Assembly (NCBI GenBank): GCA_003552585.1 | Contig: PUNK01000057.1 | Span: 720-64,719, forward strand | DNA from: Thermoplasmata archaeon | GTDB lineage: Archaea > Thermoplasmatota > Thermoplasmata > Halarchaeoplasmatales > Halarchaeoplasmataceae | DNA: 64,000 nucleotides | Direction of reading: 5' to 3' | Shown: positions 49,668 through 63,326 of the stretch, piece after piece | How positions within the stretch are numbered: the stretch's first letter is position 1 | Layout: each line of letters opens with the position of its first letter | The notes under the pieces: generated by a model | Seen by the model: the letters and a program-made list of their open reading frames with translations, nothing else | Told to the model about the DNA's origin: nothing | Databases searched by the model: none | Made by a program: the position numbers and the translations under genes

Positions 49668-50963
49668 ATGTACATTTCAATAGATGATACGGATTCTAAG
49701 GATGGTATGTGCACCACATATCTAGCGACCGAACTGATCAAGGAGTTCAATGATCTATATCTGGTGGATCACCCAAGACTCGTGCGTTTAAATCCAAACG
49801 TACCTTGGAAAACGCGTGGGAACGGAGCAATTGTCCTTCATCTTGGTCAGGGAGGCAGAAAAAAAAGGAAGATAGGATATATCGATGAAGAGATCTATCT
49901 TTATGAAGGCGATAGTACATTTTTAAACGAAGCTTTAGAGCGAGCTACAGCAATCGTAGAAAAGTGGGCATGTGACTCTGAAGGAACGAATCCTGGCATC
50001 GTGATATCAAACCAAAGACCAGGGATCGAACTGTACAAAAAAGCTGTAAAAGATGTTGTTGAACTTACAGAGGTAATGGATATTTTAGATGGGGGAGAAT
50101 ACTCTTATAAAGGATATAAAAACAAAAGAGGTTTGATAGGTGCTACTTCTGCTCTATCTTGGGAACCTGATGACCATACATATGAACTGTTAACTTACAG
50201 AGAGGATGCGAGGTGGGGCTCTGAAAGAGATCTTAACGATGAGGATGTAAAAAGATTCGACATCGAAACATTATACACTTTTGATAGTTATGACCATGAA
50301 GAAAACATCCAGGCGATCGCCCCAAATTCTCCCTGTCCCGTTCTTTACGGAGTTAGAGGAGAAGAACCGTCAGAACTAATGAAAGCTTTGTCCATGATAG
50401 GTGGTGAACGAGTTGAGAGATGGTTGTTGTTTCTTACCAATCAGGCAACGGATGATCATGTTCAAAAACAGGTGATCGGTCGATTGAGACCATGGACCTC
50501 GTGTGATATAATTGGTGAAATTTCTCGTTCTCCATGGACCATAGAAGGAGGACACGTGTTTTTTGATGTCGATTACAACGGAAATACGGTAACCGCAGCG
50601 GCCTACGAGCCGACCAAAGGATTCAGAGACGTGGTAAAAAAACTGACCGATGGTGATAAAGTTCGAGTGATAGGCGGGGTGCGAAAAGACCCGATTACTG
50701 TCAATATTGAAAAAATCGAAATACTCGAATTGGCAGAGAAGAAGATAAAAAAAAGTAACCCAAAGTGTCCTGATTGTGGAAAGAGGATGTCTTCGATGGG
50801 AAAGGACGCTGGATATCGCTGTAAGAGATGCAGGATCAAAGCGGATGAAGACGAAGCAGAAATAGTTACGGTTGATAGGGATCTAGAGCAAAAATATTAT
50901 GAGACCCCTGTTGTGGCAAGGAGGCATCTTTCTAAACCGTTAAAGAGGGTTGAAAAGTTGTGA
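49668..50963 (+). CDS. tiaS: tRNA(Ile2) 2-agmatinylcytidine synthetase
   Basis: MYISIDDTDSKDGMCTTY TiaS N-terminal signature; C-terminal Zn ribbon CPDCG...CKRC. Confidence 0.85.
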   Translation: MYISIDDTDSKDGMCTTYLATELIKEFNDLYLVDHPRLVRLNPNVPWKTRGNGAIVLHLGQGGRKKRKIGYIDEEIYLYEGDSTFLNEALERATAIVEKWACDSEGTNPGIVISNQRPGIELYKKAVKDVVELTEVMDILDGGEYSYKGYKNKRGLIGATSALSWEPDDHTYELLTYREDARWGSERDLNDEDVKRFDIETLYTFDSYDHEENIQAIAPNSPCPVLYGVRGEEPSELMKALSMIGGERVERWLLFLTNQATDDHVQKQVIGRLRPWTSCDIIGEISRSPWTIEGGHVFFDVDYNGNTVTAAAYEPTKGFRDVVKKLTDGDKVRVIGGVRKDPITVNIEKIEILELAEKKIKKSNPKCPDCGKRMSSMGKDAGYRCKRCRIKADEDEAEIVTVDRDLEQKYYETPVVARRHLSKPLKRVEKL

Positions 50964-51010
50964 TTTATGGGCAAAAATTAATCTATAATGTATTTCCTAT
51001 CTATAGCTAG

Positions 51011-51271
51011 GTGAAATATATGGAAGAAAAGGTAGGAAGTGTATTCAAGTATTTTAGAAAACCAAAAGTTGCGGCGGTAAAAATAGAATCAGGCGAAGTA
51101 AAGATAGGAGACAAATTACGTTTTAAAGGAGAACATACTGATTTTGTTCAAGAGGTAAAATCTATGCAGATAGATATGGAGGAAGTCGATGAGGTCGCAG
51201 CTGGAGATGATGTTGGGATCAAGGTCGATCAAAGGGTGAGACCGAACGACGAAGTCTTTTTGGCAGAATAA
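51011..51271 (+). CDS. small beta-barrel protein resembling EF-Tu domain 2
   Basis: GEVKIGDKL...AAGDDVGIKV...NDEVFL pattern. Confidence 0.3.
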   Translation: MKYMEEKVGSVFKYFRKPKVAAVKIESGEVKIGDKLRFKGEHTDFVQEVKSMQIDMEEVDEVAAGDDVGIKVDQRVRPNDEVFLAE

Positions 51272-51277
51272 CTATCC

Positions 51278-52666
51278 TTATCCCGGATAATACTTCTCGA
51301 TCCATTTCTCTTCGATTCTCTTGAGTTCCCTATTTGGTATGGTAGTTAACAGTTCCCACGCTAAGTCAAGGGTTTCATCTATTGTTCTATCTTCGTCTTC
51401 CCCCTGGGCTATGAACCTCTCTTCGAATTGGTCTGCAAATTCTAGATAAGTTCTATCTCTTTCACTTAAAGCCTCTTCACCTACCACAGCAACCAGATCT
51501 CTCAATTCAAGTCCCTCGGCGTAGGTTGCGTAGAGCTGATTGCTCACGTCCATATGATCCTCCCTCGTCCTTTCTTTTCCGATCCCCTGCTGCATAAGGC
51601 GTGAAAGACTTCCGCCTGGGGTTATCGGTGGCCGTATACCCTTTCTGTGTAATTCTCTGGAAAATACTATCTGACCTTCGGTGATATACCCTGTTAGATC
51701 GGGTATAGGATGGGTGATATCATCATCGGGCATGCTCAAGATAGGGAGCATGGTTATCGAACCATCTCTACCTCGTATCCTTCCAGCTCTTTCATATATG
51801 CTTGCAAGATCGGTGTACATATATCCTGGATAACCTCTTCTTCCAGGGACCTCTTCTCTGGCCGCGGCTATTTCACGTAATGCCTCACAGTAATTCGTGA
51901 TATCCGTTAGTATCACCAGTACCTGCATCCCTTCTTCAAAGGCTAGATATTCTGCTGCAGTTAGGGCCATACGAGGAATAATGATCCTCTCAATAGCTGG
52001 ATCGTTAGCTAGGTTCAGGAACAGTACCGCTCGCTCAAGAGCCCCCGTTCTTTCGAAATCGTTGATGAAAAAGTTTGCTTCTTCCGAGGTGATACCCATA
52101 GCACAAAACACCACGGCGAACTCTTCTTCCTCTCCAAGGACTTTTGCTTGGCGGGCTATCTGAGCAGCTACACTGTTATGTGGTAGACCGCTGGCACTGA
52201 ACATGGGTAACTTTTGTCCTCTGACCAACGTGAACATACCATCTATCGTTGATATTCCTGTCTGAATAAATTCCCTTGGAAATTCTCTTGCTGATGGATT
52301 GATCGGATCTCCGTTTATGTTCCGCCTTTCTTCAGGTATGATATCCGGACTTCCATCTATCGGTTCACCGACCCCGTTGAAAACCCTGCCTAAAAGTTCT
52401 CGGGAAACCCCGAATTTCATCACTTCACCGGTGAACTGTACTGAAGTATCCTTTGTATCCAATCCACGGGTACCTGCAAAAACCTGTAAAACAGCTCTAT
52501 TGGAATCAACCTCTAATACCTGCCCAATTCTTTCTTCACCACTAGGTAGGCGAACCTTAGCGATCTCATTGAAAGCGACATCAGTCACGTCCTCGACTAC
52601 CATTAGAGGACCTGAGACCTCTACCACGTTCTTGTATTCTGTTCTCTTGGATACTTCACTTTCCAT
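51278..52666 (-). CDS. atpB: A-type ATP synthase subunit B (start ATG at 52666 with GGAGG SD; ORF track TTG/GTG start at 52693)
   Basis: full-length similarity to A/V-ATPase B; [11 protein letters not shown] start. Confidence 0.9.
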
Positions 52667-52667
52667 C

Positions 52668-55061
52668 TTAATCATCCTCCATAAACGATTCAAATCCCTC
52701 GTTCATCTTCATCTCAATGTGATCGAATCTTTCTTCCCATTTATCTGAAGGAACGTTAGACATCCTACTTAGATCTTCAACAACATCCATCGCCACTATA
52801 TCATCTACTGAAACGCCCTTTTCCACTGCATCCATCCCTCTTTCGTAGAACTCCATCATGATTTCGATCATCCTGAACTGCTTTTCAGGGTCGCAGTAGG
52901 TATCCACATCGTGGAAGGCGTTCTGCTGCAGGAAGTCTTCTCTGATGACACGTGCAGCTTGAAGGGCAAATCTATCGCTTTTAGGAAGAGCATCCGGGCC
53001 GACGAGTTGAACGATCTCCTGAAGCTCCGACTCCTTTTCCAGCAGACGCATGCTCTCTCTCCTGAGTTCATGCCATTTTTCATTAATATTCTCGTTCCAC
53101 CATCCTTTAACCGAATCTAGATATAGAGAATAAGAGCGAAGCCAGTTGACTGCTGGGAAATGACGTTTGTTTCTTAATTCTACATCCAAGGCCCAGAAAA
53201 CCTGCACGATCCTTAGGGTGTTCTGGGTCACTGGTTCTGAGAAATCTCCACCTGACGGACTGACTGCACCGATGACTGAAATCGAACCATCTTCTCCATT
53301 CAAAAGCTCACATATACCTGCTCTTTCGTAAAAAGAGGCTAAAGATGATGCTAGATATGCGGGATAACCTTCCTCACCCGGCATCTCTTCTAATCTACCT
53401 GAAATCTCTCTTAATGCCTCTGCCCATCTAGATGTTGAATCAGCCATAAGTGCAACGTTGTATCCCATATCTCTATAATACTCTGCCAACGTGATCCCAG
53501 AGTACACAGATGCTTCTCTTGCAGCTACGGGCATATTACTTGTATTTGCAATTAAAACTGTACGCTTCATAAGCGGTTCCCCAGTACGAGGGTCCTCCAA
53601 CTCAGGAAAATCCCGTAGTACTTCAGTCATCTCGTTCCCTCTTTCACCACAACCGACGTAGACGACGATATCCGCATCGCTCCACTTAGCTAATTGGTGC
53701 TGGATCACCGTATTATGTAATATCATGGGTGCATTACCGCCTACAAAATTGTGAGTTCCAGGAACGGTAAGATCGTATACATCTTTTGTTTCATCTTTCA
53801 ATTCTACAGATGTAACAGGATCTGGGAGGAAATGATCTAAGTGGTTATGCTCATCTCTTGAAATTCCCACCCTTTCTTCACTCTGTTCATCTCCTTTTGT
53901 TTTATTGATCGCATTCTTCAAAGTGTCTTCTCTAGGTGCTAATAGGGTGTCTCCACTTTGTAGCTTACCAGCCGGTTGCTCTTTGATTTGCTGATCTGAT
54001 GTTAGGACGAAGAGTTTGTGAACCGGTGTCACTTCCACTTCCCGTCCCGAATCGGTTGTGACCACTACAGTACTATCTGTTTTACCTTTATAGATGCATG
54101 TCGCATGCTTTTTAATTATCTTTCCATCATCCATCGAAAGGATGTCCAAAGGATCGTTTAATTCTATCAACTCTTCGTGATCATCAAGGTTTGAATCAAT
54201 TCTCTTGATGCCTTGATCTTTGTACTCTTCGAAAATTTCTTCGATCGCTTTTTTTGTGCCATCGGCTAAGATCACCGGAGTATCTCCGGTTATACATTTG
54301 CCGGTCCCGAACCCCCCGGGTATGGCGGCGGTACCGCCTTTAGCGAGTGGAAAGAATGTATCCAGGACACGCTGTCCGGTGATAAGTAGTTCACCCGGTG
54401 CTTTCTTTCTCCCGATCGGACGTCTTATCCTTACTGGCCACCGCTGTTTCATCTTGATCTCTTCTTCACCGGTGGAAGTTTTTACACGAGCGATAGTATC
54501 TGTTATTGTGTATTCTCCTTCATTGACTATCTCTTCGATTTTCCCGCTGATACCATGAGGCACCATAACTTTGTGTTCTACAACTTTTGTTTCAGGCACA
54601 GTCCCGATGATATCACCTGCTGAAACTTCATCACCCTCTTTAACATCAGGAATAAACTTCCAGTGCTTTTCCTCGTCTAATGGTGGTACATCAACACCAC
54701 GAAGTATGAAATCTCCTGCCTCTGATTTTATGGCCTCCAAAGGACGTTGGATACCGTCATATATCTGCTGTATGAGTCCTGGACCGAGTTCTGCGGACAA
54801 GGGGTCTCCGGTTCGTTTTACGGGTTCTCCAGGCTTCAATCCACCCGTCTCTTCGTAAACTTGGATTGTAGCTACATCTCTCTCTAAGCCTATTATCTCT
54901 CCGATCAGACCAGCTTCACCTACCTCTACTACTTCATACATCTCTGCCCCTTTTAGGTTTCCAGCCTCTACTACAGGTCCAGCGATCCTGTTTATCTCTC
55001 CGACTTGTTCTTTCTTAGGCTTAGAGATACGCTCTATCCGCTTTTCAACATCTTCTTCCAT
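52668..55061 (-). CDS. atpA: A-type ATP synthase catalytic subunit A, interrupted by an in-frame mini-intein
   Basis: 797 aa vs ~585 expected; P-loop GGFGTGK|C...HN|T split. Confidence 0.9.
53712..54296 (-). mobile_element. 195-aa mini-intein in the atpA P-loop (no homing endonuclease domain)
   Basis: starts [13 protein letters not shown] (block A), TPVH (block B), ends [23 protein letters not shown] (blocks F/G) followed by +1 Thr of GKT. Confidence 0.8.
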
Positions 55062-55062
55062 A

Positions 55063-55395
55063 TCAACTGTCCTCCTTTAATGTGATATCTATTCCAACTG
55101 CACGTTTTATTTTCTCTTCAAGTGGGTCTTCTTTTCCTTTTATCGGTCCTTTAGCATCCGGCAGCTCTACTATTATCGGGTAAAGTTCCTTACCCTCGAT
55201 GAGTTTGTTAAGTTCGAAACGTATAGACTCGGCAACGTCCTCCGAGATGAGAACAACAGCAACGTCACCAGACTCAACAAATTCCGTCAGAAGTCTGAGG
55301 GTTAAGTGCTCGTCCTCGTGAACGTGGGATTCATTAACACCTGCAAGTGAAAAACCTTCTGCGAAATACTCTCCACCTATAGCGACTATCTTCAT
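55063..55395 (-). CDS. atpF: A-type ATP synthase subunit F
   Basis: [20 protein letters not shown] typical subunit F. Confidence 0.85.
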
Positions 55396-56528
55396 ACTCT
55401 ATCCTCCATCACTAACAACGCTTCGATGCTCTCAGACGGCATCTTTTCCCTTAAACCTCGGCTCAGTATATTGAGGTTCCTAAGCTCTACTTCCTTACCC
55501 ACCAAAAAGCGAAGTAGGGGACCCACACTGAGCACGTTCTGACTCATCACTTCCGAGGCCATCTGGATCATCTTTTTATCCAGGTATTTTTCTATCTCAA
55601 ACGGTCCCATGGTAGCAGCGTCACGTCTGATCTCCGCGTAGGAAGTGCCTTCCAATTCAACCAGTGCTTCTTCTAAGCCCGATGATTCAACCATACTTTC
55701 AAGCTTCCATCGTTCCAGCTCTCTGCCCGATGGGAGTAGAGCTTTCTTTAACTGCTCCTTATCCACCCCTTCTCTGAGACCCCTTATCAATATCTTCAAG
55801 TTCTTAACGTCAACGTACCTGCCGAAGAAGTACTTGACCGGTGGTCGTTCTTCGGATTCTACATTTTTAACTGATTTTTGGATACGCTGGTAAACGTATC
55901 TATCGAAGGACACTTCCAAAGAGTACATGTCTTCAGTAGGATCTTCACCCTGCAGCGGCTCTTCGAAACCCGCCTCCTTCAAAATGTCGATGACCTCCTG
56001 GAGATCACGAGCGTTCACCAAACTATCGATCACTTTCTCGTCCACCCTCCTTACGGGGATCAATTTTTCACTCATATCTTCTCTAGAATCTCCAGTCATT
56101 TTGGACTTCAGCGCACGTTTTGCCATCCTTACGTCGAACCGAAGTAGCCATGCACCGGCGAACTCCTTGGCGGAAAGGGGACAGTTTCTGTACGCCCTCC
56201 TCATGAAGGACATGGTTTCACTTTCCAGCTCCCTTTCCAGTTCGTTCTGGTCCAGGGTAGCTTCTTTGGAAAGGTCATATCCTCTATCCTCCAGTTCCTG
56301 ATATACTTCATTAAGATTGTTTCCTTCGACCAAAGGTGAGAGTACGCTGTTACTCAAAAAGGGATTGCCGATGGCTCGGTATTTGGCGTTAGGATAAGTA
56401 AAACTAGCTATCGATAGTAACACTTTGAAATAACTCATAACCAGCAGTACGACTATAAGTAATGAGCCGCCGACTATGACCAACACGAAGTTGGTGATTC
56501 CTAGGGAATCGATAACCCCTTCTAACAC
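55392..56528 (-). CDS. atpC: A-type ATP synthase subunit C (d-like), with an unusual ~30-aa hydrophobic N-terminal extension if the operon-abutting start is used
   Basis: YPNAKYRAIG...; size and position in operon. Confidence 0.75.
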   Translation of the reverse strand: MLEGVIDSLGITNFVLVIVGGSLLIVVLLVMSYFKVLLSIASFTYPNAKYRAIGNPFLSNSVLSPLVEGNNLNEVYQELEDRGYDLSKEATLDQNELERELESETMSFMRRAYRNCPLSAKEFAGAWLLRFDVRMAKRALKSKMTGDSREDMSEKLIPVRRVDEKVIDSLVNARDLQEVIDILKEAGFEEPLQGEDPTEDMYSLEVSFDRYVYQRIQKSVKNVESEERPPVKYFFGRYVDVKNLKILIRGLREGVDKEQLKKALLPSGRELERWKLESMVESSGLEEALVELEGTSYAEIRRDAATMGPFEIEKYLDKKMIQMASEVMSQNVLSVGPLLRFLVGKEVELRNLNILSRGLREKMPSESIEALLVMEDRV

Positions 56529-57110
56529 TCAGATTTCCTCCTTAAACATCATCTCAGATATCTCTTTTCGGATATCTTTTTTCATACGTTCTAGATTGGA
56601 TTCGAAGGTAAGGTCTATGAACGAGCCGCTTTCAGAACGTGCTTTGATGCCCCCCACCGATATAAGATCGGCTTTTACTTTAACCGAAGGAGCGATCTTT
56701 TTAGCCATCTCACTCACCAGCTCTTTACTCTCTTCATTACACGATACCGTGATATCCTTTCCCAATACTTTAACGCATTTGCCTATGGCTTGTCGGATAT
56801 AAACTTTATAATCCTCCGCCTGTAGAGAACCAAGTTTTTTCAAAGCCTCTTGGAATATCTCATCTATCATCTCCTCCCTAACTTCAAGCTCACGCTTACG
56901 GGCGTCCAGCTTAGCTTGGGAGCGGATGCGGTTCTTCAACGTCCTCAGCTCTCTGTCGCTCTCTTTTTTGAGTTCGTCGAGTTTTCTCTCCTTCTCGGAG
57001 ATTATCTTCTCCTTTTCAGACTCAGCCTTATCACGGGCTCTCTTGGCGATGATCTTCGCCTTCCGTTTTGCGTCCGTTCTTATCCGCTTAACCAATTTAT
57101 CTACCGACAT
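56529..57110 (-). CDS. atpE: A-type ATP synthase subunit E
   Basis: 193 aa, charged N-terminal helix, position in operon. Confidence 0.8.
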   Translation of the reverse strand: MSVDKLVKRIRTDAKRKAKIIAKRARDKAESEKEKIISEKERKLDELKKESDRELRTLKNRIRSQAKLDARKRELEVREEMIDEIFQEALKKLGSLQAEDYKVYIRQAIGKCVKVLGKDITVSCNEESKELVSEMAKKIAPSVKVKADLISVGGIKARSESGSFIDLTFESNLERMKKDIRKEISEMMFKEEI

Positions 57111-57119
57111 CTTAAGCCC

Positions 57120-60100
57120 TCACATAAACCCAAAGAACACTATTATAAATATCGCTATCAACAGACCGAAGATAGCAAAGGTCTCCGACATAACGCTGAA
57201 TATCATGCCCTTGCCGAATACCTCCTCTCGTTTTGTCACAGCGGCTATGGCGGAACCCGAGGTTATACCCTGACCGACTCCGGATACACCGGCTATACCT
57301 ATGGCAAGCCCGGCGCCGACGGCGGCCACACCCATGCCTACGGTAAGATCAGTATCTCCACCCAGCATGCCGCTGAATACCATGAGCAGTATTCCGATCA
57401 AAAGCCCGTATATAGCCTGAGTTTCGGGAAGTACGGAGAATACCATACCCCTTCCGAACATCTTCTCGTTCTCCGTCACCGTTGCAACTCCACTGGCTGC
57501 GGCGATACCTTGGCCTATACCTGAAAGACCTGCGATGCCAACCGCTAAACCTGCACCTACGCCAACCATCCCAATTGCTAGGTCCAATGGAGGTCCTTCG
57601 CCCAATAAACCGCTGAATATCATAAGTAATATGGCGATCAACAGCCCGTATATAGCCTGAGTTTCGGGAAGTACGGAGAACACCATGCCCCTGCCGAACA
57701 ATTCTTCTTTTTCAGCCACACAACCTATACCGCTGGCTGCGGCGATACCCTGGCCTATACCGGATAGGCCGGCGATACCTACGGCTAAACCTGCACCTAT
57801 AGCTGTCAACCCTATAGCGTAGCCTGATTCACCAAGGACGACTTCAGGGAAGTCTCCTGCTAATAACCCGCTGAATACCAGTAATAGTATGGCTATCAGT
57901 AAACCATAGATGGCCTGGGTTTCCGGTAAAACGGAGAATACCATTCCTTTGCCGAACATCTTTTCATCCTCGGCCACTGTTGCGATACCACCGGAAGCGG
58001 CGATACCTTGGCCGATACCTGAAAGGCCTGCGATGCCCACGGCTAACCCGGCTCCCATACCTACTATACCCATGGATGCTTCCATGGTAACAGCATCTCC
58101 CAGCATACCTGAGAAAACCATCAACAGTATGGCCAACAGTAGTCCGTATATCGCCTGTGTTTCCGGAAGCACCGAGAATACCATACCCTTTCCGAATAGT
58201 TCCTCTTTTTCAGCCACCGTCGTAACACTGCTGGCTGCGGCGATACCTTGACCTATACTGGACAACCCTGCTAGACCTACAGCGAATCCGGCACCAACGG
58301 CCATCATGCCTATGGCTAGACCGGAATCCCCTGCCATTATGGGGTCGCCCTCACCTGCCAGTAAACCTGTAAATATCATCAAAAGTATACCTACGAGAAG
58401 TGCATAGATCGCCTGGGTTTGAGGTAGTGCCTGGAATACCAATGATTTACCGAATTTGTCCGGATCCTCGGTCACTATACCCGCACCCGCCGCACCTACT
58501 ATACCCACCCCTATGCCGGCTCCCATACCGGCTATACCTACGGCTAAACCTGCTCCCACACCGACCAATCCCAAAGATGATTCGATTGAAGTCGGGTCTC
58601 CCAACATGCCTGTGAAAATTAGTAGTAATATAGCAATAAGTAATCCGAATATAGCGAAGGTCTCTGACATCACACTAAAGATCATTCCTTTTCCGAATAC
58701 TTCACTTCGTTTTGCAACAGCGGGTATAGATGCCCCCGAAGTTATCCCCTGACCCACACCCGAGATACCAGCAATGCCTACTGCTAAACCAGCCCCTATC
58801 GCTATCATGCCCAAACCGTGACCTTGATCACCCAACAACGCAGTAGGATAATCCCCTGTCAACAGGCCTGAGAAGACCATCAAAAGGATAGCTATGAGTA
58901 AACCGTATATCGCCTGTGTCTCCGGAAGCACTGAAAAAACCATGCTCTTCCCGAACATCTTTTCGTCGTCGGTAACGGTGGCTATACCACTTGCCGCTGC
59001 GATGCCCTGGCCGATACCGGATAGCCCTGCTATCCCCACGGATAATCCTGCACCGACTCCAACCAGACCTAGGCCTATGTGTAGTGGTTCTCCATCACCC
59101 GCCAATAAACCGCTGAATATCATCAATAATATGGCGATCAACAAACCGTATATCGCCTGGGTTTCCGGAAGTACCGAGAACACCATACCTTTACCGAATA
59201 TCTCTTCATCTTCGGCCACACAGCTTATACCGCTGGCCGCAGCGATGCCTTGGCCGATACCGGATAGTCCTGCGATGCCCACCGCCAAGCCGGCACCGAT
59301 AGCTATCAAGCCCAAGGCGTAACCGGAGTCTCCAGCCATTATAGATGCCGGGTCTCCGGCTAGAAGGCCGGTGAACACCATCAGTAATATAGCTATGAGT
59401 AAACCGTAGATGGCTTGTGTTTCCGGTAGCACGGAGAATACCATGCCCTTACCGAACAGCTCCTCCTTCTCGGCTACTGAAGATATACCGCTTCCCGCTG
59501 CGACTCCTTGGCCTATGCCTGAAAGCCCGGCCACTCCGACCGCGATGCCGGCGCCTATACCTACCATGCCTAGGCCTAATCCGTATTCTCCCAGCATGAA
59601 GGCGTGAATATCTCCCCCTAGGAGACCAGTGAACACCATCAGCAATATTGCTATCAATAAACCGTATATTGCCTGTGTTTCCGGAAGTACGGAGAATACC
59701 ATACCTTTACCGAACAATTCTTCCTTCTCTGAATAAGCGGCTACACTACCGGAGGCGGCTATACCCTGCCCGACAGCGGATAGGCCAGCGATCCCCACCG
59801 CCAAACCGATACCCAACGAGATTATACCTATGGGTAGGGGAACGTAAGCTCCGTCACCGAGAACTCCGGTGAATAGTAACAGTAAAACGGCTATGAGTAA
59901 ACCGTATATAGCTTGGGTTTGAGGTAGTGCCTGGAACACCAAACATTTACCGAATTTATCCGGACTCTCGGCAACGGTACCCGCACCCGCCGCACCGGTT
60001 ATACCGACACCGATGCCTGCACCCATCCCTGCGATCCCAACGGCAAGCCCTGCCCCTATGGCAGTCAAATAAGTTCCACGCTCGTCCCTTTCAACGATTA

Positions 60101-60482
60101 TTTCGATCGAATGTGAATAAGATACATCATCATCCGTTATCTCAAGGGTAACCGTGTAATTCCCCAGCTCGTATTCACGTGTTACATTTTCGGCTATAAG
60201 CTCTTCGATATCCATCGGTCCTAGTTCATATCCCTCTCCATCTCCAAAGTCCCATGAGGCATTAAATGGACCATCAGGATATTCATCCACATCCAAATGG
60301 ATACCGAATTTTATTTCCACTGGCTCATCTTCATCAACGGTGTATATCCTGGCCCTTTCTTCCACAACATCTCCATCAACCATTATCTTTAGCTCGTTTT
60401 CTCCCTCTGCTATGACTGAAGGAAGAAGGGCAGATACGATGATAAGTAAGATGAAAACTATGATCAACCTGTGCCCCTTCAT
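57120..60482 (-). CDS. atpK: A-type ATP synthase proteolipid subunit K as a single 12-hairpin fusion, preceded by a signal peptide and PKD-like domain
   Basis: aa 1-25 signal peptide; aa ~30-135 PKD motif (WDFGDG...YTVTLEITDDD); 12 repeats of ...GxGxAxGxAGxxxxGQGIAA...FGKGMVFSVLPETQAIYGLLIAILL. Confidence 0.85.
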   Translation of the reverse strand: MKGHRLIIVFILLIIVSALLPSVIAEGENELKIMVDGDVVEERARIYTVDEDEPVEIKFGIHLDVDEYPDGPFNASWDFGDGEGYELGPMDIEELIAENVTREYELGNYTVTLEITDDDVSYSHSIEIIVERDERGTYLTAIGAGLAVGIAGMGAGIGVGITGAAGAGTVAESPDKFGKCLVFQALPQTQAIYGLLIAVLLLLFTGVLGDGAYVPLPIGIISLGIGLAVGIAGLSAVGQGIAASGSVAAYSEKEELFGKGMVFSVLPETQAIYGLLIAILLMVFTGLLGGDIHAFMLGEYGLGLGMVGIGAGIAVGVAGLSGIGQGVAAGSGISSVAEKEELFGKGMVFSVLPETQAIYGLLIAILLMVFTGLLAGDPASIMAGDSGYALGLIAIGAGLAVGIAGLSGIGQGIAAASGISCVAEDEEIFGKGMVFSVLPETQAIYGLLIAILLMIFSGLLAGDGEPLHIGLGLVGVGAGLSVGIAGLSGIGQGIAAASGIATVTDDEKMFGKSMVFSVLPETQAIYGLLIAILLMVFSGLLTGDYPTALLGDQGHGLGMIAIGAGLAVGIAGISGVGQGITSGASIPAVAKRSEVFGKGMIFSVMSETFAIFGLLIAILLLIFTGMLGDPTSIESSLGLVGVGAGLAVGIAGMGAGIGVGIVGAAGAGIVTEDPDKFGKSLVFQALPQTQAIYALLVGILLMIFTGLLAGEGDPIMAGDSGLAIGMMAVGAGFAVGLAGLSSIGQGIAAASSVTTVAEKEELFGKGMVFSVLPETQAIYGLLLAILLMVFSGMLGDAVTMEASMGIVGMGAGLAVGIAGLSGIGQGIAASGGIATVAEDEKMFGKGMVFSVLPETQAIYGLLIAILLLVFSGLLAGDFPEVVLGESGYAIGLTAIGAGLAVGIAGLSGIGQGIAAASGIGCVAEKEELFGRGMVFSVLPETQAIYGLLIAILLMIFSGLLGEGPPLDLAIGMVGVGAGLAVGIAGLSGIGQGIAAASGVATVTENEKMFGRGMVFSVLPETQAIYGLLIGILLMVFSGMLGGDTDLTVGMGVAAVGAGLAIGIAGVSGVGQGITSGSAIAAVTKREEVFGKGMIFSVMSETFAIFGLLIAIFIIVFFGFM
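57123..60062 (-). repeat. 12 tandem ~240-260-bp coding repeats (c-subunit hairpins) organised as a duplicated 6-hairpin super-repeat
   Basis: recurrent nucleotide blocks such as gtttccggaagtacggagaataccat at ~240-bp intervals; hairpins 1/7 and 6/12 are pairwise most similar. Confidence 0.8.
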
Positions 60483-62614
60483 TCACTCCCCTCCTTGCTC
60501 GTGGTGAATCTTCTTTCTGGTTTGAAAGGTTTGAATTCCGTACCACCGCCTTCATAGAAGTAACCGAAGAACTCTACGTACTGCAGCCTGAGAGAATGTA
60601 CGAAGGAACCCAAGGCCTGAAGTGAAGCATTGATGATATGTCCTCCAACCAGAACTACAAGGGAAAGTATATAGAAGGGATATACGGGATCGATAAATCC
60701 CAGTCCGCCGATCACCATAATAGAAATTCCAGCACCCATTATTTTTTTATCTTTTGAGAGTGTGGAACGTATGAGTAGAACGGAACCAATAGCTACCACT
60801 ACCAAAGCCATCATCGTTCCCATCGACCCGTCTGCTACAAGATATGCAAGCACGTTGACCGTTAAAGCGATCCCTGCCGTGGCAAGGCCGAGGGCAAGAA
60901 TCCTGGCAAAGGAGAGAAAATCACCCAAAAAACCCGTTAATGCGAAGAATGAAAGTCCTTTAGCCCTGACCACCAGAAGGCCAAGACCAACAACGCTCAT
61001 TATAGCAGCAATGGTGTAAACTGTTCCTGTGAAATCGTACCAGCCAAAGAGCATACCCGATAGGAGTATGAAGCCACCCGGCTGCAGAAGCCACCATGAA
61101 ACGTTCTCGAGTAAGACATGCCTGTAATTCTTCCGTCTTATATGTTGTATCAGGGATAGGACGAGACCTATGTTTATGTATGCCAGCCCTATCAGTAGAG
61201 ATATTATCAAGAGAATCAGCGGTCCATCACCCTCTAGGGTATCAAGAAGAAGTGGTGGATCAAGACCGAAGCGGCCCAAGAGATTAAGATATTCTTCTCT
61301 ATTTGGGCCGAGATATCCTCCCTGGAGAATCCCGAAGATGAAAGTTGATAATCCTGCCGCCAACAGTATCAAAGAAAAGTCCCTTGTACCCTTCTCTATC
61401 TTACCTATGCCGTAATATAAAACTAGAGAAACCGCTATTATCAAACCACCATAAACCGCATCGCCCAACATCAGACCAAAAAAGATAACGAAGGCAGGTG
61501 CAATTATAAGAGTTGGATCGACCTCGTCATATCTTGGAGGTGCGAACATCCTCGTGAGCAGTTCGAAGGGTTTCAAAAGCTTAGGATTATCTAAAGATAC
61601 AGGCACATAATCAGGGTCTCGAGGTTCCTCAGAAACCAATAAACCGTATCCTCTGGACTGCTTTTTTACCTCTCTCTCTACCTGTGGCACCAGGTCTTCA
61701 GGAGCCCACCCTTTGATGATCGCGGTCGTATCGGTCCGTCCGAACTGCTGGTAGGCTTCCATTTTGTTACGGAATATCTCAAGCTCTTCTTCAAGCACAA
61801 AAAAATCGAGTTGATGCTCTTTTTTTTGTTCCACCAATGAGGTGAAGAGATCCTCTTCCTCCTTCTTCATCTCCCTTATTCGCTTATCTAATTTGTCTAG
61901 TACGTCGGAAGGGATACCTTTTAATTGACCGAAGTCAAAGATTTTTACATTTGTCTCCCTCAGCACCATATCCAATCTTTTACGATCTCTTATATAAGCT
62001 CCAGCGATGGCGATGTATTCCTTTTCTTTTCTCCTTTGAAGAATAAGGTGGGAAGTATCTATTTCTGATAGTTTTCTCTTTAGTAGAGTAGTATTTTGTG
62101 TCTTTCCTACACGATATACCGTGTATGGTGAATCACCGATATAGCTGAGATCGATATCTATATCGATCATCTGTTGAACACTTCTGCGGATAGATTCAAA
62201 CTCTTCGATCTTTTCTCTCTTTTTGTTGAGTTCTCTGCTCAGTTTAAGAATATTTTTTCCCACGGAATCCATGAGATCATCTATCTCTTCTTTTAGTGCT
62301 GAAAAATCTTTCATTTCTCTTTTTACAGGTTCGATCTCCTTTGGAAATATGAGATCTTTGATGCCTTCTTCCTTGACTTCTATACTGCTAAAAACGTCTT
62401 GTACGGAGGTAAGTTTCATCTCATACTCGGTACAATCGGATAGATTTTTGTGTATAGAACCATCGTCTATTAAACTGCTCAAATCAGTATCCCTTTCTAC
62501 GTTAGATATCTCTATTTCACCCATGGAATGAAGACCTTCTACAACTTCGTCCAAGTAAGAATCGTGTACGATTATAGTGACGTCCTTCATCCTCTTGGGG
62601 AAGAGTATGTTCAT
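60479..62614 (-). CDS. atpI: A-type ATP synthase subunit I (a-subunit)
   Basis: 711 aa, N-terminal coiled cytoplasmic domain, C-terminal polytopic domain with ARILALGLA (conserved Arg). Confidence 0.85.
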   Translation of the reverse strand: MNILFPKRMKDVTIIVHDSYLDEVVEGLHSMGEIEISNVERDTDLSSLIDDGSIHKNLSDCTEYEMKLTSVQDVFSSIEVKEEGIKDLIFPKEIEPVKREMKDFSALKEEIDDLMDSVGKNILKLSRELNKKREKIEEFESIRRSVQQMIDIDIDLSYIGDSPYTVYRVGKTQNTTLLKRKLSEIDTSHLILQRRKEKEYIAIAGAYIRDRKRLDMVLRETNVKIFDFGQLKGIPSDVLDKLDKRIREMKKEEEDLFTSLVEQKKEHQLDFFVLEEELEIFRNKMEAYQQFGRTDTTAIIKGWAPEDLVPQVEREVKKQSRGYGLLVSEEPRDPDYVPVSLDNPKLLKPFELLTRMFAPPRYDEVDPTLIIAPAFVIFFGLMLGDAVYGGLIIAVSLVLYYGIGKIEKGTRDFSLILLAAGLSTFIFGILQGGYLGPNREEYLNLLGRFGLDPPLLLDTLEGDGPLILLIISLLIGLAYINIGLVLSLIQHIRRKNYRHVLLENVSWWLLQPGGFILLSGMLFGWYDFTGTVYTIAAIMSVVGLGLLVVRAKGLSFFALTGFLGDFLSFARILALGLATAGIALTVNVLAYLVADGSMGTMMALVVVAIGSVLLIRSTLSKDKKIMGAGISIMVIGGLGFIDPVYPFYILSLVVLVGGHIINASLQALGSFVHSLRLQYVEFFGYFYEGGGTEFKPFKPERRFTTSKEGSE

Positions 62615-62925
62615 ACCTCCTGAAGACGTGAGATCACGTGTTCGACAGCCTCATCCTTATGTTCATCAGTGAGCTCTTTAAGTCTTTTAGCTCTTTCTTC
62701 TCCCTCCTTACGGATCTCTTCAGCTTGCTCCTCCGCCCTTTTTTTTACTTCTTTTCTTTCCTGCTCAAGATTTTTTTTAAATGAAAATATCTCGTCTTCT
62801 TTATCCTGCTCAGCCTCTTTTTTCGTACGTTTTATCAGATCCTCACCCTTTCTTCCAGCCCTCTCGATCATCTTGAGAGCTTTCTTTTCCGTCTCTTTGA
62901 CGATTTCTATTTCTTCGATAGGCAT
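62611..62925 (-). CDS. atpH: A-type ATP synthase subunit H (ORF track extends to a TTG at 62961)
   Basis: ~104 aa, highly charged helical, first gene of the operon. Confidence 0.6.
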   Translation of the reverse strand: MPIEEIEIVKETEKKALKMIERAGRKGEDLIKRTKKEAEQDKEDEIFSFKKNLEQERKEVKKRAEEQAEEIRKEGEERAKRLKELTDEHKDEAVEHVISRLQEV

Positions 62926-63326
62926 GATGGAGCACCCCGTGGCAGGTTTGATACGTTTCAAGTTGTGATTAGTAGTTTAGATATAAGGATTTTGGTAATC
63001 GAACTAATAAATCGAAACAGGATTTTTATTGCACCCGCCGACCGTAGTGTGGAACTAGCTCCACTTTATTCTCGGGCAAAGCCCTGCGGATAGGGAGGCA
63101 ATATACCCACAGCCTTGGCCGTGGGTGCGGGAGCGAAATTGACTTCCCATCAAAAAAGTGTTGTAAATATTACCATATTCTGCCTATAGAAGGCTGACTC
63201 GAACGACATCAGCAGGAAGATAACACCAGTATCGCAAAAGGGCATGGGATATTAGTCGAGGGAGAAACCTTTTTTACACTCCTAGTTCATGGGATAAACG
63301 GAGGAGAATAATTGCCTAAATCGAAT

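Follow-up and report, generated by a model that had tools for sequence, protein, structure and literature searches.

Can the complete membrane rotor of an ATP synthase be encoded as one covalent chain, and can such a rotor carry a folded domain outside the cell? Both questions are raised by a 64,000-nucleotide stretch of DNA from an uncultured Thermoplasmata archaeon (assembly GCA_003552585.1, contig PUNK01000057.1, positions 720 to 64,719), referred to here as the window; coordinates count from its first nucleotide. Its atpK gene (57120..60482, stop codon included, (-) strand; open reading frame (ORF) list and Pfam) encodes a single-chain proteolipid of 1120 amino acids (aa) in which a signal-peptide-like segment and a PKD-type domain precede 12 helical hairpins. 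The protein is likely to be a single-chain, 12-hairpin A-type rotor with an exported PKD domain that rotates on its outer face. Single-chain A-type rotors are themselves known, and what is new here is the covalently attached immunoglobulin (Ig)-like domain, which is predicted to be exported.

The proteolipid gene

The atpK product is the K (c, proteolipid) subunit of the A1AO-type ATP synthase of this uncultured archaeon. The gene fills the K slot, flanked by atpI and atpE, of an A-type ATPase operon whose genes all run in one direction in the order H-I-K-E-C-F-A-B, an order that recurs in nearly all related loci long enough to show it. No second c-type gene is present within the 64-kb window, and atpK is the sole proteolipid gene of the operon. 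The ORF begins with ATG and contains no internal stop codon and no ambiguous base (N). The Pfam model ATP-synt_C (PF00137) matches the product in 12 stretches (E=8e-202, 654 bits; cut-off 24), a hidden Markov model (HMM) built from the hairpins also counts 12, and the helix-2 motif [PS][EQ]T[QF]AI[YF] occurs exactly 12 times, between aa 187 and 1099. A first-pass annotation of the window had described both a sole proteolipid gene of this length and 12 consecutive c-subunit hairpins, and both descriptions hold. One further Pfam match, DNA_polI_exo1 at aa 413-448, falls within a hairpin and recurs among the precomputed matches of several other K proteins; it was rejected as a compositional false positive.

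Hairpins and ion sites

The identity matrix of the hairpins resolves the array into a 6+6 tandem duplication in which hairpin 1 pairs with hairpin 7, hairpin 4 with 10 and hairpin 6 with 12. Each hairpin also maps to its counterpart in a relative with six hairpins. This duplication was absent from the first-pass annotation and is added here. The first half begins with a ‘blank’ hairpin 1 (aa 135-214, 59841..60080, assigned by motifs and alignment to NtpK), which carries PQTQAIY in helix 2 and GAGIGVGI in helix 1 and has a loop longer by one residue. It is followed by the full-site hairpins 2-5 (GQG ... PETQAIY; aa 215-553, 58824..59840) and by hairpin 6 (SETFAIF; aa 554-633, 58584..58823), which keeps its Glu and has degenerate donor residues for the next site. 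The second half repeats this layout on the same (-) strand, with the blank hairpin 7 (PQTQAIY, GAGIGVGI; aa 634-714, 58341..58583), the full-site hairpins 8-11 (aa 715-1046, 57345..58340) and hairpin 12 (SETFAIF; aa 1047-1120, 57123..57344), which is predicted to close the ring against hairpin 1. Hairpin 7 is a copy of hairpin 1 (69% aa identity) without the signal peptide or the PKD domain. Both lack the helix-2 carboxylate, which is replaced by Gln, and the helix-1 Gln. The helix-2 Glu is retained in the remaining hairpins, giving 10 carboxylates in the array of 12.

These details revise the motifs given in the first-pass annotation, which had placed GQGIAA in helix 1 and an ion-site motif (P/S)(E/Q)T(Q/F)AIY in helix 2 of every hairpin. 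The helix-1 motif does not extend to hairpins 1 and 7. The helix-2 motif is present in 12 copies, with SETFAIF in hairpins 6 and 12 and the carboxylate-free PQTQAIY in hairpins 1 and 7, so that an ion-binding Glu is found in only 10 hairpins and not in all 12.

The composition of each site was deduced from the Enterococcus hirae rotor subunit NtpK (PDB 2bl2), to which hairpins 1-2 align with E=1.3e-17. In this alignment L186, T189, Q190 and Y193 fall on L61, T64, Q65 and Y68 of NtpK, Q239 falls on Q110 and E268 on E139. The Na+ ligands of NtpK are Leu61 (through its carbonyl), Thr64, Gln65, Gln110 and Glu139 (PMC2359735). A site is therefore composed of the Glu and helix-1 Gln of hairpin n together with the Leu, Thr and Gln of hairpin n-1, and the complete NtpK-type set is conserved at all 10 sites of the window protein.

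The same arrangement was then scored, with motif anchoring, over donor/acceptor pairs from 55 distinct proteins of the family described below, taking the direction of the rule from the NtpK alignment and the published ligands. A hairpin that carries both Glu and the helix-1 Gln is always preceded by one with T-Q-Y (279/279 internal pairs), and a blank hairpin is always preceded by one with T-F-F (6/6 internal pairs). The first hairpin is blank and the last is degenerate (TFF or ISF) in every one of the 55 proteins. The last hairpin thus appears, from these residues, to be built to adjoin a blank hairpin, and a degenerate last hairpin with a blank first hairpin fits head-to-tail packing, that is, closure of the ring within a single chain.

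The ion coupled by this rotor is probably Na+, which is favored because the full ligand set is kept at the sites and lost exactly where no site exists. An H+-coupled enzyme, in which the Q/T/Q/E/Y set is retained ancestry without Na+ selectivity, is a serious but unlikely alternative. Some Na+ ligands do persist in H+-translocating c subunits (PMC2359735). The motif alone is no reliable guide to ion specificity, yet conservation of all five NtpK ligand positions at each of the 10 sites, and their loss only where there is no site, points to selection on the full set, and many family members come from soda-lake or hypersaline sediments. Na+ energetics are common in such settings.

Family of fused rotors and ring size

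Relatives of the window protein were recovered by homologue searches and a scan of GTDB genomes, and their hairpins were counted by HMM. The combination of signal peptide, PKD domain and hairpins is found in at least 56 distinct proteins. Almost all named members are labelled as metagenome-assembled genomes (MAGs) of Thermoplasmata/Thermoplasmatota; many, among them Ca. Saliniplasma, Natronoplasma and Haladaptatiplasma, are from soda-lake or hypersaline sediments, and one comes from the DHVE2 group. Some database entries are automatically annotated as ‘PKD domain-containing protein’ or ‘V-type ATP synthase subunit K’. Wherever a locus extends far enough for its gene order to be read, the fused gene lies in the K slot, directly after atpI and before E-C-F-A-B. 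When the DHVE2 member was used as the query, no cultured host of the PKD fusion was found, and the search returned only six-hairpin K proteins without PKD, from cultured Methanocalculus. Two loci with Thermoplasmata-like operons and a fused K gene carry other labels, L050 (Halanaerobiaceae bacterium) and L007 (Aenigmatarchaeota), and are probably mis-binned. The PKD N-domain is visible in L007, and the K gene of L050 is truncated at the start of its contig.

Hairpin number in this family is restricted. Complete ORFs among the 56 proteins have 4 hairpins (13 proteins), 6 (37) or 12 (6), and no other number. Twelve hairpins were reached by three repeat histories: 6+6 in the window protein, P0002 and P0003; 6+3+3 in L001; and 1+10+1 in P0004/L009, where one blank hairpin is followed by ten amplified full-site hairpins and a terminal hairpin. 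L001 (9986-13339) is the closest GTDB representative, with 87-91% identity in subunits E, C and B. Its hairpins 1, 7 and 10 are blank and hairpins 6, 9 and 12 have degenerate donors, which leaves 9 ion sites. The simplest reading of the series is a 12-hairpin ring built from 3, 2 or 1 chains, with 3, 2 or 1 external domains and 9, 10 or 11 sites.

Applied to the window protein, this would make the whole membrane rotor one polypeptide of 12 hairpins and 24 transmembrane helices. The ring would comprise exactly one chain, with hairpin 12 packed against hairpin 1, and would carry 10 ions per turn, or about 3.3 per ATP, the ion probably being Na+. The first-pass annotation had raised the possibility of a whole ring in one covalent chain, which is strengthened by the 4/6/12 series and by the threefold origin of 12. 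That the 12 hairpins of the window protein would amount to a complete ring is supported indirectly by this series, the three routes to 12, the donor/acceptor rule and the precedent of a c12 ring. PDB entries of the Thermus thermophilus V/A-ATPase each contain 12 single-hairpin K chains (132 chains in 11 entries), so there is precedent for a V/A ring of 12 hairpins.

A full-length AlphaFold2 (AF2) model has a mean predicted local distance difference test (pLDDT) score of 89.8 and a predicted template-modeling score (pTM) of 0.88, and its terminal hairpins match the internal ones in confidence. Adjacent hairpins of the model superpose on NtpK (2bl2) at 1.5 A with a template-modeling (TM) score of 0.89 in a Foldseek search of the PDB. 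With the full model this search matches two-hairpin chains at most and is uninformative on ring closure.

The predicted exported domain

The protein begins with a Sec-type signal-peptide-like segment (aa 1-25, 60408..60482, (-) strand), identified by inspection and reading MKGHR / LIIVFILLIIVSALL / PSVIA-EG, where the hyphen marks the candidate cleavage point. It has the n/h/c layout of a Sec signal peptide, with a positively charged n-region, a hydrophobic h-region and small residues at -3/-1, and this layout is kept across the family alignment (VIA-EG, ASA-QEE, AQG-K). Next comes an acidic PKD-type beta-sandwich of roughly 105 aa (WDFGDG ... YTVTLEITDDD; aa 26-134, 60081..60407, (-) strand), assigned from PKD_4, AF2 and Foldseek.

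The first-pass annotation had named a PKD-type Ig-like domain behind a signal-peptide-like segment and had proposed a check with PKD profiles. The profiles give a split result for the window protein itself. PKD_4 (PF18911, cut-off 27) scores 27.9 bits with aa 1-145, 26.7 bits with aa 1-214 and 23.3 bits with the full protein, and PF00801 (PKD) scores 19.9 bits against a cut-off of 23.5. Among 21 homologous N-domains, 19 match PKD_4 (best E=3.9e-18), 16 match PKD and 8 match the K319L-like PKD model, and PKD scores of the 4-hairpin members reach 45.7 bits. An exhaustive phmmer search with the N-domain returned 103 matches in 1.8 billion representatives, all of them long proteins matched in multiple stretches, as would be expected of PKD-repeat proteins; a word-indexed search with the N-domain alone returned no matches. 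AF2, run with the family alignment, folds the N-domain as a beta-sandwich with pLDDT 89-96 over aa 31-132. The top Foldseek matches of this domain in the PDB are the SorCS2 PKD domain 1wgo (E=1.2e-4) and the archaeal surface-layer (S-layer) PKD 1l0q, with 2e7m and 4xed also found. Because the homologue matches, the phmmer matches and the predicted fold agree, the PKD identity is secured despite the borderline score, and the domain named in the first-pass annotation stands.

The PKD domain is predicted to be extracellular and N-glycosylated. It contains 34 Asp/Glu against 7 Lys/Arg and three N-X-S/T sequons, at N74, N99 and N108, and the N-domains of the family together contain 289 sequons against 72.6+-7.8 in composition-preserving shuffles. 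This roughly fourfold enrichment is a signature suggestive of an N-glycosylated, exported archaeal domain, and it backs the earlier statement that an outside location is topologically consistent. The N-out topology of c hairpins is known, and the N-terminal helix is the inner helix in c-rings. According to DSSP on the AF2 models, the last PKD strand (aa 120-132) is joined by a 2-residue connection to a helix that runs from aa 135 to 172; the sequence of the junction is ERDERGTYLTAIGAG. The signal peptide would thus route the N-terminus through Sec and leave the acidic, N-glycosylated sandwich outside the cell. Since so short a connection ties it to the inner helix of hairpin 1, the domain would be placed close to the axis of rotation, in or around the outer mouth, and would turn with the ring. 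In such a position on the outer face it could rotate without sweeping past the stator.

An arrangement that is improbable, though it has structural parallels, is that the N-terminal hydrophobic segment stays uncleaved as a 25th transmembrane helix (N-in) inside the ring lumen, which would still leave the PKD domain outside. Such a helix would resemble the first transmembrane helix of subunit c'' or the Ac45/Voa1 helix in V-ATPases, where helices of this kind fill the ring core (PMC7414150), and the h-region is long, with about 15-20 hydrophobic residues. However, the family keeps small residues at -3/-1 with acidic or polar ones directly after them, a pattern typical of signal peptidase I sites. 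The segment is helical in the full-length AF2 model, but its pLDDT is below 50 (30-34) and it shows no confident packing.

Function of the external domain

The PKD domain is kept as a domain in the 4-, 6- and 12-hairpin forms. Its sequence changes far faster than that of the ring, with 22-52% identity in the domain against 59-99% in the adjoining hairpins of the members compared, the canonical WDFGDG is absent from some members such as P0003, and one member carries an insertion of about 170 aa in its N-terminal region. This six-hairpin protein of 805 aa (P0036; L011, 9170-11587) has about 305 aa before its first hairpin, about 170 aa above what is typical, and this N-terminal region is rich in charged residues. 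No partner gene is conserved beside the operon in the related loci.

Such features agree best with a generic structural role. A weakly supported proposal, made by analogy with the luminal domains of Ac45/Voa1, is that the PKD domain may be a hydrophilic, glycosylated cap or shield of the outer ring mouth and its lipid plug. Rapid sequence divergence, together with a count per ring that varies (3, 2, 1), makes a specific ligand-binding role seem less likely.

It is doubtful that the external domain is dynamic, whether as a brake or clutch docking on the stator or an S-layer partner, as an environmental sensor or as a surface decoy diversified by viruses. Fast divergence relative to the ring is what would be expected of surface proteins under diversifying selection, and in archaeal surface proteins such as 1l0q, contacts with proteins and with glycans are made through PKD domains. 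The variable copy number per ring, the loss of WDFGDG from P0003 and others, and the missing partner gene all speak against this role, and docking on a static structure would stall the rotor. The narrower proposal of a regulated brake or clutch acting on the stator or an envelope partner, or of a fast-evolving surface structure shaped by its use as a virus receptor, is more doubtful still.

Alternatives to a one-chain ring

The ring might instead contain two 12-hairpin chains, with 24 hairpins and 20 sites, or some other multiple, in which case one chain would be half a rotor. The numbers 4, 6 and 12 all divide 24, and rings of 20 hairpins exist, as in the E. hirae K10 ring of 10 two-hairpin chains per entry (50 chains in 5 entries). 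This alternative is nevertheless very improbable. The cost would come to about 6.7 ions per ATP, V/A rings assembled from single-hairpin subunits stop at 12 hairpins, the single chain of Methanopyrus kandleri has 13 (PMC2359735), three independent expansions all ended at exactly 12, and the terminal hairpins of the AF2 model equal the internal ones in confidence.

The possibility that the long ORF is an artefact, either a repeat expansion or chimera of metagenome assembly or a frameshift fusing a separate PKD gene to atpK, can be dismissed: repetitive genes do misassemble easily and the source is a MAG, but the repeats are only 38-78% identical in DNA, the same fusion recurs in at least 56 different proteins drawn from a wide range of independent assemblies and sources, and the 6+6 architecture is shared by proteins 85-86% identical from JGI, NCBI and ENA data. 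Between hairpins of the gene, protein identities are 24-85%; at the DNA level, one half of the array matches the other at 72% identity, and exact repeats within the gene reach 38 bp at most. Collapse or expansion of the assembly is excluded because the repeats are divergent in DNA and no exact repeat exceeds this length. An identical protein, P0001, is present in the public collection. P0002, its cluster member P0183, and P0003 each have 12 hairpins in the 6+6 pattern; their sources (JGI/gem, NCBI and ENA) differ from that of the window.

Several points weigh against a single-chain rotor with an exported, co-rotating PKD domain. Ring closure and the placement of the PKD domain are deduced rather than seen in the AF2 coordinates, and every family member comes from a MAG. 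Cleavage, glycosylation, ion specificity and expression are predictions for the K protein. The PKD score of the window protein sits at the threshold of the model. Since 4, 6 and 12 also divide 24, a two-chain ring is conceivable, if unlikely. Finally, multi-hairpin K subunits of Methanopyrus, Methanomicrobiales, Methanocaldococcus and DPANN evidently work without an external domain; ring formation as such therefore does not depend on the domain.

Comparison with known rotors

The closest precedent is AtpK of M. kandleri, a 13-hairpin ‘monomeric rotor’ (Lolkema & Boekema 2003, as cited in PMC2359735 and PMC3639240), which the first-pass annotation had correctly cited. Both proteins string the tandem ATP-synt_C hairpins of an A-type rotor into one chain of about 1000 aa, are encoded in the same operon slot, and have Na+-type ligand motifs. 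The comparison that was proposed with M. kandleri gives about 50% identity over the hairpin array (P0006/P0011). The M. kandleri protein has 13 hairpins, a complete site in each (PMC2359735) and no N-terminal extension, whereas the window protein has 12 (6+6), two of them blank, with a signal peptide and a PKD domain predicted to be exported.

E. hirae NtpK resembles the window protein in its blank first hairpin, which donates Leu/Thr/Gln to the Gln/Glu site of the next hairpin, and in the degenerate donors of its last hairpin (VETYAIL in NtpK, SETFAIF in the window protein). It differs in having one site per two hairpins in a 10-mer of 20 hairpins, compared with 10 sites in 12 hairpins of one chain with an external domain. 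The three-hairpin K of Methanocaldococcus (blank-E-E) and the six-hairpin K of Methanomicrobiales (about 481-486 aa; blank-E-E-E-E-E) share the blank first hairpin followed by full-site hairpins, the same operon and a hairpin number that divides 12. Both lack a signal peptide and an external domain, and their rings are assembled from several chains. The T. thermophilus V/A-ATPase has a rotor ring with the hairpin number proposed for the window protein, 12 (12 K chains per entry), but the ring is composed of twelve separate single-hairpin subunits with a carboxylate in each and no external domain.

For the external domain, the nearest counterparts are mammalian Ac45/ATP6AP1, its yeast form Voa1 and the (pro)renin receptor, which likewise place a beta-rich exoplasmic domain on the outer (luminal) face of a c-ring. 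The luminal domain of Ac45/ATP6AP1 is beta-rich and glycosylated, lies on the luminal face of the mammalian c-ring and co-rotates with it as a rigid body (PMC7414150). All of these counterparts are type-I membrane proteins in their own right, and their transmembrane helix fills the ring core, whereas in this archaeal A-type enzyme the PKD domain belongs to the same polypeptide as the ring and is joined covalently to its N-terminus. The likeness is a functional analogy only: Pfam scans and fold searches with the window protein gave no Ac45/Voa1 match, and no sequence relationship was detected.

Other long c-type proteins were encountered in the searches. Single-chain K subunits of DPANN/Nanoarchaeota type (P0005, P0007, P0015, P0019, P0021, P0022 and P0025; L039, L063, L077 and L079) have 12-13 hairpins and Asn/Thr-rich N-terminal extensions of 50-100 aa without a signal peptide, and PF22648 is precomputed on two of them. 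MAGs of Promethearchaeota (Asgard) encode K proteins of about 1140 aa with 15 hairpins (P0072-P0076), and the bacteria Vampirococcus and Gracilibacteria of the candidate phyla radiation (CPR) encode c proteins of about 750 aa with 10 hairpins (P0078-P0079). Single-chain rotors seem to be far commoner than the one textbook example.

Other genes of the operon

All genes of the operon lie on the (-) strand. Upstream of atpK are a putative atpH (62611..62961; 116 aa, charged and coiled-coil-like), assigned by its position and its conservation in related loci and without a Pfam match, and atpI (60479..62614), which encodes the stator a/I subunit of 711 aa (Pfam V_ATPase_I) and overlaps the start of atpK by 4 nt. 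Downstream are atpE (56529-57110), atpC for subunit C (d/AC39; 55392-56528), atpF (55063-55395), atpA with an intein (52668-55061) and atpB (51278-52693), all assigned by Pfam. The catalytic A subunit has 797 aa, with the intein (Intein_splicing, aa 263-450) within the nucleotide-binding domain.

Subunit C carries a conserved hydrophobic N-terminal extension of about 30 aa (GITNFVLVIVGGSLLIVVLLVMSYF) within its first approximately 45 codons, before the AC39 domain, and the Pfam AC39 match begins only at aa 47. The extension is also present in L001, L002, L003, L007-L010, L012, L013, L019, L023, L025, L035 and L046, and likewise in relatives from Methanocaldococcus and Methanoregulaceae. The extension could form a transmembrane helix inserted into the ring from its cytoplasmic face.

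In neither the window (49668-51277) nor L008 (17160-18791) is atpB followed by an atpD, so the gene for subunit D must lie elsewhere. At the end of the window's operon there is an 86-aa ORF with EF-Tu domain 2 and then the gene for TiaS (tRNA-Ile2 agmatidine synthetase); in L008 a convergent TiaS gene follows atpB.

Significance

No paper that connects a PKD domain with a c-ring or proteolipid came up in full-text literature searches, and an exported, glycosylated Ig-like domain fused to a spinning rotor, as predicted here, is undescribed for prokaryotic rotary ATPases in the searchable literature. The first-pass annotation's view that a PKD domain on a rotor is undescribed holds for the searchable papers; it does not hold for databases, which already contain the family, or for the principle, which has a eukaryotic precedent in the separate protein Ac45/ATP6AP1. 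A 2022 paper gives archaeal c subunits as having ‘1, 2, 3, or even 13 hairpins’ (PMC9171764), and the 4-, 6- and 12-hairpin forms, together with the 15-hairpin forms of Promethearchaeota and the 10-hairpin forms of CPR bacteria, appear to be under-described. The architecture would surprise specialists, and it makes both the control of ring size and the role of rotor-borne exoplasmic domains testable. A single-chain, intrinsically asymmetric ring with an external marker would also be attractive for cryo-electron microscopy and single-molecule rotation. If the brake, clutch or virus-receptor proposal were true, this would be the first ATP synthase rotor controlled or targeted from outside the cell.

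Ring stoichiometry sets the ratio of ions to ATP. It is normally fixed by subunit packing and can be learned only from structures, and here it would be encoded in the gene. Through varying numbers of blank hairpins, rings with 9, 10 or 11 sites would translocate 3.0 to 3.7 ions per ATP. The Thermoplasmata family may therefore represent a natural experiment in which ring size is held constant and the gearing of the enzyme is tuned.

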